A stretch of 64,000 nucleotides of DNA. Source: Euryarchaeota archaeon SM23-78 (GTDB lineage: Archaea; Nanobdellota; Nanobdellia; Woesearchaeales; SM23-78). A model generated the notes under the pieces. The model was not told the origin of the DNA, ran no database searches, and saw nothing but the letters and a program-made list of their open reading frames with translations. Position numbers and translations under genes: made by a program. The stretch lies in NCBI GenBank assembly GCA_001595785.1, contig LSSJ01000023.1, positions 4,870 through 68,869 on the forward strand, written 5' to 3'. Of this stretch, positions 15,507 through 37,906 are shown piece by piece (the stretch's first letter is position 1; every line of letters starts with the position of its first letter).

Positions 15507-16046
15507 TTAACATACAAGTTCATCTAAACTGGTGGATTTTTCTTGCTTTTGTTCTTTAGTTTTTTCTGTGTGATTATTTATGCATAGAATTCCGTTTTCA
15601 TAATTCTTTTTATGCCTGTAAAAAGAACTAAATATGCCTGGAAGTGTATAAGCAATTGGTGCAGAGAGATAACTAGGAACCAAATTTGTTGCTAAAAGAC
15701 CGTAATGAAGAGAAAATTTTGCTATTCCTCCAAAGATACTGGCTTTGCTGCCAACTTTGGCTAGTTTAAGAGAATGTTTTCTGGTATCTAAGCCTTTTGG
15801 GTCTTCCTCTCTCTTATGTACAAATGTATAAGCGATAATATAAGCAGTTAAACCAGCAGCGCATTGAGTTATGTAAGTCAGCACAGAGTTAATTTCCTTA
15901 GGAATACCCAATTCAGATAACACAAGGTTGGATGCGGTTGCTGTGACTAAAGAGGTCAAACTGCTAGCTGTTTCACCAGCTAAGTAATCTTTATTCTCTT
16001 TTACAAACACCCCTTTTATTATATTTCTAGCCTTTTTTATTACCAT
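15507..16046 (-). CDS. Membrane protein, paralogue of 16131-16613
   Basis: Shared C-terminal block SYLSAPIAYTLPGIFSSFYRHKKNYENGI, matching PYYLAPLIGYSIPGLAGSIYRHIKNYNQGI in the neighbour. Confidence 0.6.
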   Translation of the reverse strand: MVIKKARNIIKGVFVKENKDYLAGETASSLTSLVTATASNLVLSELGIPKEINSVLTYITQCAAGLTAYIIAYTFVHKREEDPKGLDTRKHSLKLAKVGSKASIFGGIAKFSLHYGLLATNLVPSYLSAPIAYTLPGIFSSFYRHKKNYENGILCINNHTEKTKEQKQEKSTSLDELVC

Positions 16047-16130
16047 TTAGTAGTAGTTAAATGTGTTTGTATTTATAAGTGTTTCGGAATAAAAACAAAA
16101 TAAGTCAAAATTCAAGCAACAACCCTGTCC

Positions 16131-16613
16131 TTACAACTTCTTTGCTTTCTTTGAAAAAGAGAAAATCCCCTGATTATAATTCTTGATATGCCTATAGATT
16201 GAACCTGCAAGACCAGGAATGCTGTAACCAATCAAAGGAGCCAAGTAATAAGGTAGCATACTTGTTTTTAAAAGAAAATAATGAGCAAGCACCTGCACCA
16301 CCCCCGTTATTATAGAGCCATACACATTTGATTTGATCAACCCCTTAAAATATCTCTTAGGATAAGGGCCTTTATGTTTTAAATTATAAGCCCATCTATG
16401 AGTTAAAATATTACCAATCCAAAAAGCAACAGTCATAGCCACAAATGTGCCAAGAACATTAAGCTCAAAACCAAAACCAATGTTCTTTAAAAAAATTGTT
16501 GCTGCTATTGCAGCAGAATAACCAAGAAGAGCACCACCGAATTCTGCTATATAATAATTAAGATTATCTTTAGAAAATACAACCTGACTAAAACGAAGCT
16601 TAGTTTCACTCAT
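16131..16613 (-). CDS. Membrane protein, paralogue of 15507-16046
   Basis: Start reassigned to the ATG at 16613 (MSETKLRF). The 47 upstream codons of the track ORF translate the tRNA-Arg gene. Confidence 0.6.
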   Translation of the reverse strand: MSETKLRFSQVVFSKDNLNYYIAEFGGALLGYSAAIAATIFLKNIGFGFELNVLGTFVAMTVAFWIGNILTHRWAYNLKHKGPYPKRYFKGLIKSNVYGSIITGVVQVLAHYFLLKTSMLPYYLAPLIGYSIPGLAGSIYRHIKNYNQGIFSFSKKAKKL

Positions 16614-16618
16614 AAGAA

Positions 16619-16852
16619 TGGACCAGGAGGGACATTCAGAAAAACAGCGTTCTCCAGCAACAAGTTGCTGTCCCAGCAAACTTTGCTTGTTTCTGGGCGA
16701 TCCGCGCTGCTCCTCGTTCGAACCCTCGATCCCCAGCTTAGAAGGCTTGCACAATGCTTACACGTAAAGTAAGAGTTTTGGTGCCTTTTCCAGCTTTGCT
16801 GGAAGCTCAAAAGCTCCCTGCTTTTGTTGTATCCAGACTAGGCTACTGGTCC
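16619..16852 (-). tRNA. tRNA-Arg(UCU) interrupted by three introns (D-loop 43 nt, anticodon stem 32 nt, T-loop 84 nt)
   Basis: Hand fold gives exons 16852-16830, 16786-16780, 16747-16717 and 16632-16619. The 75-nt mature form is GGACCAG TA GCCT AGTCTGGATA AGGC A CCAGC CTTCTAA GCTGG GGATC GAGGG TTCGAAT CCCTC CTGGTCC A. All stems are Watson-Crick. Confidence 0.8.
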
Positions 16853-16877: not shown

Positions 16878-16886
16878 TTTATAAAA
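16878..16886 (-). promoter_or_regulatory. TATA box (TTTTATAAA on the minus strand) about 26 nt upstream of the tRNA-Arg 5' end
   Basis: Read directly. The spacing matches that seen at the other tRNA genes. Confidence 0.5.
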
Positions 16887-37740: not shown

Positions 37741-37906
37741 ACGGCTGTGGTCTAGTGGTTACAACAAAAGAGAAAAAACTCTTTTGAGCTTGCGGCAGAG
37801 CCGCAAATGACGCGACCCTCCCAAGGTCGTTGCCCGGGTTCGAGAACAAAAACGAAGTTTTTGACTTTCGCAAAGCTTCGCTTTGACGAAACTCCCGGCA
37901 GCCGTA
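37741..37906 (+). tRNA. tRNA-Gly(CCC) with two introns (D-loop 46 nt, T-loop 48 nt)
   Basis: Exons 37741-37761, 37808-37844 and 37893-37906. Acceptor ACGGCTG/CAGCCGT, anticodon arm CGACC CTCCCAA GGTCG, T arm CCGGG TTCGAG[intron]T CCCGG. CTTTAAAATAA lies about 27 nt upstream. Confidence 0.8.

Follow-up and report, generated by a model that had tools for sequence, protein, structure and literature searches.

The window analysed in this study is a stretch of 64,000 nucleotides from Euryarchaeota archaeon SM23-78. At 16619-16852, on the minus strand, it holds a segment that reads as a tRNA when three pieces are taken out, and the question is whether this is a working tRNA gene and how a tRNA could be produced from it. 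A preliminary description had proposed a tRNA-Arg(UCU) gene with introns in the D loop, the anticodon stem, and the T loop, and this reading is borne out by the cloverleaf of the joined exons, by ARAGORN, and by a set of orthologs. Judging from the sequence, we consider with high confidence that it is a real tRNA-Arg(UCU) gene of Woesearchaeales (DPANN), very probably functional, which would be driven by a TATA box and spliced by EndA and RtcB to 75 nt. The parts of the gene are listed below, with the predicted bulge-helix-bulge (BHB) motif of each intron.

16619..16852, minus strand: tRNA-Arg(UCU) gene, four exons and three introns, CCA not encoded
16831..16852, minus strand: exon 1, 22 nt; acceptor 5′ strand, U8 A9, D-stem 5′ strand, D loop to U20a
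16830..16788, minus strand: intron 1, 43 nt; D loop, 20a/21; relaxed BHB
16779..16787, minus strand: exon 2, 9 nt; A21, D-stem 3′ strand, A26, C27-A29
16778..16747, minus strand: intron 2, 32 nt; anticodon stem, 29/30; good BHB
16717..16746, minus strand: exon 3, 30 nt; G30-C31, CUUCUAA loop, anticodon-stem 3′ strand, variable loop, T-stem 5′ strand, to A59
16716..16633, minus strand: intron 3, 84 nt; T loop, 59/60; strict hBHBh′
16619..16632, minus strand: exon 4, 14 nt; U60, T-stem 3′ strand, acceptor 3′ strand, A73

The gene is 234 nt long, and removing 43 + 32 + 84 nt leaves the mature 75 nt. Read on the minus strand from 16852 to 16619, its layout is GGACCAGTAGCCTAGTCTGGAT-(43 nt)-AAGGCACCA-(32 nt)-GCCTTCTAAGCTGGGGATCGAGGGTTCGAA-(84 nt)-TCCCTCCTGGTCCA, and the joined exons are GGACCAGTAGCCTAGTCTGGATAAGGCACCAGCCTTCTAAGCTGGGGATCGAGGGTTCGAATCCCTCCTGGTCCA. 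Introns account for 159/234 nt, which agrees with the share of 68 percent given earlier. In the spliced form, the acceptor stem has 7 bp (GGACCAG/CTGGTCC) and is followed by U8 and A9. The D stem has 4 bp (GCCU/AGGC) with a 10-nt D loop, AGUCUGGAUA, and is followed by A26, and the anticodon stem has 5 bp (CCAGC/GCUGG) with the loop CU-UCU-AA. In addition, the variable loop is GGAUC, the T stem has 5 bp (GAGGG/CCCUC) with the T loop UUCGAAU, and the discriminator base is A73. Thus, the spliced form shows the 7/4/5/5-bp stems, U8, G18-G19, U33, a T loop of the UUCRANU type, and the discriminator base by which we recognised a cloverleaf, and all 21 stem pairs are intact.

ARAGORN called the joined form tRNA-Arg(tct) of 75 nt. 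The genomic form was missed by ARAGORN, without or with intron search (-i0,300), and by the Rfam model RF00005, in the window as well as in the whole genome. An ARAGORN search with introns had been suggested as a check, and its outcome is divided: the spliced form is accepted, but the gene as it stands in the genome is not detected. Two other kinds of disrupted gene were ruled out. The four exons are colinear within 234 nt, so this is not a split or permuted tRNA gene. Self-splicing group I or II introns do not fit inserts of 32-84 nt, and the sole Rfam match in the window is one tRNA.

Three free deletions leave many degrees of freedom, and the cloverleaf might therefore be a chance construct. 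We searched 60 related genomes with the gene by BLAST and then applied a custom spliced alignment. Finally, 18 tRNA-Arg(UCU) orthologs were obtained, which carry 0-3 introns each and all have an exon length of 75 nt; where a base-by-base comparison was made, 66-67 of the 75 positions agree with the spliced form of the window gene. Seven of the orthologs, from other families of the order, are intronless, and one of these scores 68.3 bits with RF00005. Within the genus, G002 and G004 have a single intron of 15-16 nt at the same D-loop site, with the 3′ ends GCUAGAA and GCCAGAA (GCUGGAA in the window). Meanwhile, the sole intron of G010 is 33 nt long and lies at 29/30, and G003 and G006 have introns at 28/29 and 59/60. 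Among the UCU orthologs seen in the genus, only the window gene has three introns, and its combination of sites was seen nowhere else; the ortholog of G059, from another family, has three introns in the D loop, at about 37/38, and at 59/60.

Across the 18 spliced orthologs, the cloverleaf is 98.4% paired, 9 of the 21 pairs changed on both sides, and covariation occurs in all four stems. None of 500 shuffles matched the percentage paired, the number of pairs changed on both sides, or the covariation score, and slid controls were 29-53% paired. The identity of the orthologs together with this covariation makes both a chance origin and a pseudogene very unlikely.

The junctions were examined by scanning all position pairs of the gene for BHB motifs. 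A motif was defined by two 3-nt bulges with a 4-bp helix between them, a cut after the second bulge base, and flanking helices; the scan looked for a central helix of 4 bp that stops 2 nt short of each cut and is flanked by an outer and an inner helix. It returned 587 candidate pairs, and many 4-bp BHB-like helices thus arise by chance, which is a point in favour of a chance construct. However, intron 3 gives the best BHB in the gene, far above all the chance candidates (outer 5 + central 4 + inner 11 bp). This result, the intronless orthologs of the same sequence, and the covariation in four stems refute the chance reading, whose probability we take to be negligible.

The intron sites are 20a/21 (43 nt), 29/30 (32 nt), and 59/60 (84 nt). 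The junctions of introns 1 and 2 are ambiguous by 1 nt in the sequence; the BHB geometry picks the register, and the mature product is unchanged. A BHB check of each junction had been proposed, and BHB-like structures can be drawn at all three. From the modelled motifs, we rated the junction at 59/60 as strict, the one at 29/30 as good, and the one at 20a/21 as relaxed.

Intron 3 stays exactly where it had been placed, at 16716-16633 in the T loop, with 84 nt at 59/60. The T stem serves as its outer helix, UUCG/UGAA forms the central helix, and the bulges read AA-C and UG-U, the hyphen marking the cut. The inner helix of 11 bp, GAGGAGCAGCG/CGCUGUUUUUC, is followed by two hairpins. Enforcing the central helix costs +0.4 kcal/mol relative to the minimum-energy fold of -87.0. 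We also considered a C/D-box sRNA in this intron and rejected it by eye; CUGA is present at the 3′ end, and the C box is absent.

Intron 2 had been put at 16779-16748, between positions 28 and 29. The anticodon stem is confirmed as its location, but the boundaries become 16778..16747, at 29/30. Only in this register does the central helix GCAC/GUGC form, with 4 Watson-Crick pairs and the bulges CA-A and AA-G; at 28/29 it would be GGCA/UGUG, which is unpaired. On the inner side, 2 bp (AA/UU) are followed by a 5-bp hairpin, CUUAC-UUUACGU-GUAAG. The outer helix is weak and consists of G23-C31 only (1 bp), or of 3 bp with C32 bulged. Enforcing the central helix costs +1.4 kcal/mol. In addition, the orthologs of G010 and G016 have the same central helix at 29/30, and in those of G003, G006, and G044, a different intron lies 1 nt upstream of this site, with the helix GGCG/CGCC or CGCU.

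Intron 1 had been placed at 16829-16787. The D loop and the length of 43 nt stand, but the central helix of those boundaries would be UGGA/UGGA, unpaired, and the intron is best placed 1 nt upstream, at 16830..16788, between 20a and 21. The central helix is then CUGG/CUGG, with the pairs C-G, U-G, G-U, and G-C (two of them G-U), and the bulges are AU-A and AA-A. The outer helix is the D stem, offset by three unpaired bases. The intron holds two hairpins, CAAAAG-loop-CUUUUG and CCAGC-AAA-GCUGG. Because the latter competes with the central helix, enforcing this helix costs +8.5 kcal/mol relative to the minimum-energy fold. Furthermore, the helix of intron 2 uses G24-C25, which is needed in the D stem for the BHB of intron 1, and the two motifs are therefore mutually exclusive. 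On these modelled structures, introns 1 and 2 are probably removed one after the other.

The cost of the canonical register raises the possibility that the gene is real and the D-loop insert is removed in some other way than as a single classical BHB intron. Its removal would then depend on alternative pairings or a cofactor, or the insert would be a composite. For example, the exon CUGG could pair with the intron CCAG, followed by an internal hairpin, or an older short intron could have received a hairpin module later. Such a reading is in line with the same-genus orthologs, whose inserts at this site are only 15-16 nt long and have similar 3′ ends, and with the hairpin CAACAAAAG...CUUUUGAG, which is a dispersed module that also occurs in the 37/38 introns of Arg tRNAs of relatives. 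However, the pairing at 20a/21 is kept in five introns of differing sequence (CUGG/CUGG, UUGG/CCAA, GUGG/CCGC, CUGG/CUAG, and CUGG/CCAG). UUGG/CCAA belongs to the homologous 43-nt intron of the G014 tRNA-Arg(CCU), where the canonical BHB is the minimum-energy fold. GUGG/CCGC belongs to the homologous intron of a tRNA-Gly(CCC) at 37741-37906 of the window, where the canonical BHB costs only +3.6 kcal/mol. CUGG/CUAG and CUGG/CCAG are found at the same D-loop site in G002 and G004, respectively. The first position of the central helix stays paired across copies (C-G, U-A, G-C), and the end product is identical either way. Thus, we regard a non-classical D-loop insert as rather unlikely and keep the reading of a single relaxed BHB intron.

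The hairpin concerned (CAACAAAAR-loop-YTTTTGAG, 16806-16829 of the window, minus strand) is one copy of a dispersed non-coding module. There were 46 matches in the genome, none in a reversed control, and 0-2 in Markov simulations. Although long open frames occupy 89% of the genome, 33 of the 46 copies lie outside them (e.g., C23:50229-50255, C7:1118-1144, C8:9519-9545, and C26:48046-48072). A second hairpin and a TTTATAAA box come after several of the copies, and the D-loop introns of at least four tRNAs contain others. In G009 and G013, canonical 37/38 introns of Arg tRNAs also contain the first hairpin of the D-loop intron. In addition, two near-identical copies, C12:70-95 and C44:22060-22085, stand in a GC-rich structured context, …CCGGGGGACGCC.CATCCGGGG-module-…GGCAGCACCUUAAGUAAGGGGUUCCGGUCC. 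These two copies may be an intron in another stable RNA gene.

The surroundings of the gene include a promoter upstream and a protein-coding gene downstream.

16885..16878, minus strand: TATA box TTTATAAA, start at -33 relative to the 5′ end of the mature tRNA
16131..16613, minus strand: small membrane protein gene, ATG at 16613-16611, 5 nt past the tRNA

The TATA box is preceded by a purine-rich stretch and sits just past the stop codon of the upstream gene. A TATA-like match is present at 22 of the screened tRNA genes of the genome, and in 10 of these it starts at -33 to -30. A precursor of about 234 nt would be transcribed from this promoter. EndA would then excise the three protein-spliced introns at 20a/21, 29/30, and 59/60, RtcB would join the four exons into the 75-nt tRNA, and CCA would be added. 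We infer from the sequence both that this splicing happens and its order.

Two open reading frames overlap the gene. One of them, 16610-16810 (minus strand, 66 codons), lies within the tRNA gene, of which it is only a translation, and gave no match in Pfam. The other, 16131-16754 (minus strand, 207 aa), is a translation of the tRNA gene in codons 1-47. The alignment of the 207-aa protein with its tandem paralog begins only at about residue 47-59 (residue 59 against residue 13 of the paralog), which indicates that the true start is Met48. Hence, the alignment to the paralog and the Pfam search confirm the earlier view that the shorter frame and the first 47 codons of the longer one are artefacts. 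It should be noted that 15507-16613 of the window encodes two tandem paralogous small membrane proteins, with the paralog at 15507-16046. They are 30% identical, share the C-terminal block PG..S.YRH.KNY..GI, and have no confident family match. The first of these genes may be co-transcribed with the tRNA.

To see the gene in its genomic setting, one has to consider that the genome comprises 1.48 Mb with 37% GC and is 90% complete. AGA makes up 57% of the arginine codons in long ORFs (22.9 per thousand codons). No second UCU anticodon arm was found by BLAST of the genome or among the screened tRNA candidates. The window gene would thus be the only UCU decoder found, serving the main arginine codon AGA. 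As the genome is 90% complete, a second tRNA-Arg(UCU) could lie in the missing part, and the same holds for an EndA beta subunit.

In the whole genome, ARAGORN reported 5 intronless tRNAs, and Rfam gave 14 over threshold. We therefore screened for tRNA genes by a GC-rich 7-bp acceptor and a T arm, with an insert in the T loop allowed. The strict subset contained 39 candidates, 2 of which were judged false, leaving 37 credible genes; looser acceptor/T-arm screens (407 and 280 candidates) were too permissive and were left out. With gene length as the proxy for introns per gene, about 35 of the 37 credible genes exceed the length of a mature tRNA. The 39 candidates have a median length of 154 nt, and only two of them are no longer than 78 nt. 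About 20 of the screened genes have an insert at 59/60 of the T loop, 14 of them with a fully paired UUCR/YGAA central helix, and the 3′ ends of these introns in the genome are mostly YGAA-NN before U60. Among the ordinary-length tRNAs of the screened set, the 234-nt Arg(UCU) gene shares the highest intron load. Since about 35 of 37 genes are overlong, its interrupted architecture is the local rule and not an oddity.

The paralog tRNA-Arg(CCU) (G000:C2:7239-7463; L030, minus strand) is one such case and has introns of 25 nt at 19/20, 78 nt at 37/38, and 47 nt at 59/60. Its 78-nt intron contains GUUGAUGACG and other elements resembling C/D boxes, and a similar intron is present in G004 (L032). 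The tRNA-Trp introns of other archaea hold box C/D guide RNAs. By analogy, the 37/38 intron of tRNA-Arg(CCU) may also hold one.

The same data bear on a second alternative, in which the locus is a dead tRNA gene with three repeat-like insertions and AGA is read by another tRNA encoded in the unassembled 10%. Three points speak for it: the gene is missed by the standard finders, the genome is 90% complete, and intron 1 begins its series of hairpins with one that belongs to a dispersed non-coding repeat (46 copies, with 0-2 expected). However, the 21 stem pairs are intact, and the exons are identical at 66-67 of 75 positions to orthologs that look functional. Every insert is in BHB register, which is unexpected for random insertions. 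Furthermore, the promoter is intact, and no second UCU gene was found in the searches above. Finally, nearly all tRNA genes of the genome are built likewise, and they cannot all be dead. We consider a dead gene very improbable, and a functional, interrupted tRNA-Arg(UCU) gene remains the best explanation.

The introns have relatives in other tRNA genes. The intron 3 core has no second copy in its own genome, and none was found in viral contigs. A relative with 77 of 84 identical columns lies at 59/60 of the initiator tRNA-Met of G002, and another one, of 82 nt, lies at 59/60 of a type II leucine-like tRNA of the same genome. A third relative (76 of 84 columns, also at 59/60) is present on the metagenome contig Ga0114922_10007043 (L046 3160-3365), in a multi-intron tRNA with the acceptor GCCACGG; the G000 counterpart of that tRNA (C13:3121-3282) has a different T-loop intron of 30 nt. 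In all, the T-loop intron of 81-84 nt was found in four different tRNA species. At one position of its inner helix, three copies have C-G, A-U, and G-C, a case of direct covariation. In addition, shorter relatives of the T-loop intron, 47 nt long and with the same ends (CGAGRARC...UUUUCUGAAUG), occur in tRNA-Arg(CCU) and tRNA-Leu(GAG) of the own genome. From these sequence relationships, and from the same-genus orthologs with only one or two of the introns, we infer that the introns of tRNA-Arg(UCU) are recent and mobile. Intron families common to different tRNAs match the intron transposition described for Thermoproteales.

The preliminary description had held that such introns require a splicing endonuclease of broad specificity and had suggested typing the EndA of the genome. 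A single alpha-type gene was found (G000:C43:75115-75765; L036 1474-2127, minus strand), head-to-head with a gene for an RNase Z-like metallo-beta-lactamase. It encodes 217 aa, matches PF01974 with 101 bits and PF02778 with 59 bits, and has a Lys/Glu-rich N-terminal tail of 45 aa. The best relatives of solved structure are the catalytic alpha subunit of N. equitans (E 7e-40) and the alpha4 enzyme of M. jannaschii (E 1e-33). A beta subunit or second unit was not found in the genome with the Pfam models PF01974 and PF02778 or with the alpha protein as query (E up to 10); the same query is able to pick up the beta subunit of N. equitans at 4e-17. Of 41 related genomes, 39 have an EndA match. A second match appears in only 4 and never comes near the family cut-off (E 0.03-0.4), and a closed genome of one contig has a single match. 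The weakness of these second matches and the closed genome argue against a beta subunit in the missing part of the genome.

Three loops are relevant to the specificity of EndA, as defined in PMC3488258: the crenarchaeal loop (CSL) of A. pernix, the ASL of ARMAN-2, and the Lys-rich loop of N. equitans (residues 90-98 of NEQ205). In HMMER alignments, the EndA studied here has gaps at all three positions. Its spacing from Tyr to His equals that of M. jannaschii, and it therefore has no N. equitans-type insert, CSL, or ASL. The enzymes of eight named relatives have the same spacing, share FRVYDRG[IV][KR]PG[ED]DHA, and carry a variable Lys-rich N-terminal tail. Thus, neither a beta subunit or three-unit fusion nor a Lys-bearing insert near the active site, the marks of broad-specificity EndA, was found in the genome, and the broad-specificity endonuclease that had been called for is not evident. 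A gene for the ligase RtcB is present (C18:25794-27095, 579 bits).

This enzyme differs from those of other archaea with many tRNA introns. According to PMC5829648, non-canonical introns are cut well only by loop-bearing enzymes, and plain alpha-type EndA needs strict BHB motifs. The same paper describes DPANN alpha4-type EndA with an 'L3' loop in Woesearchaeota, Pacearchaeota, and others; the lineage studied here appears by alignment to be without this loop. We tentatively propose that a plain alpha-type EndA handles a tRNA set of which about 90% is interrupted, either by a fourth, undescribed specificity route or with introns that are just within the reach of a strict enzyme, and that the introns were seeded by, or exchange with, a mobile intergenic element. 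If this is true, relaxed BHBs such as that of the D-loop intron would be cut by an EndA that has a Lys-rich tail and is without a beta subunit or the three known loops.

The primary reports on multi-intron tRNA genes of Thermoproteales are reportedly those of Sugahara et al. and Fujishima et al. As in this order, a gene here may contain up to three protein-spliced introns, non-canonical sites such as the D loop, the anticodon stem, and 59/60 are used, and the motifs are BHB or relaxed BHB. However, the present genome belongs to a mesophile-like, AT-rich DPANN archaeon (37% GC) in which nearly every tRNA gene is interrupted. In addition, the EndA of Thermoproteales is (alpha-beta)2 with the crenarchaeal loop, whereas a single alpha unit was found here. 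PMC4090602 and PMC4033280 review the thermoproteal genes (Pyrobaculum, Thermofilum, and Caldivirga). The genome shares its many non-canonical and multiple tRNA introns with other DPANN (ARMAN-2, Woesearchaeota, and Pacearchaeota). ARMAN-2 has disrupted tRNA genes together with an epsilon2 EndA (PMC3239211, PMC3488258), and 56% of its tRNA genes are interrupted (PMC3488258), compared with about 90% here. The structure of the gene is thus not new, being known in Thermoproteales, ARMAN, and DPANN (PMC4090602, PMC3239211, PMC5829648).

As regards annotation, ARAGORN and Rfam both overlook the only decoder found for the most-used arginine codon, and two false ORFs stand in its place. Most tRNA genes of the lineage are missed likewise, and the published tRNA counts for such genomes are therefore gross underestimates. 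This is consistent with PMC5829648, which notes that the tRNA sets of such DPANN genomes are not fully predictable and calls for manual curation. The finding also sharpens the question of how an EndA without known specificity loops copes with such substrates. Furthermore, it is a well-documented additional case in which DPANN tRNA introns have been gained, lost, and moved quickly, with 0-3 introns in one and the same tRNA gene within one order.
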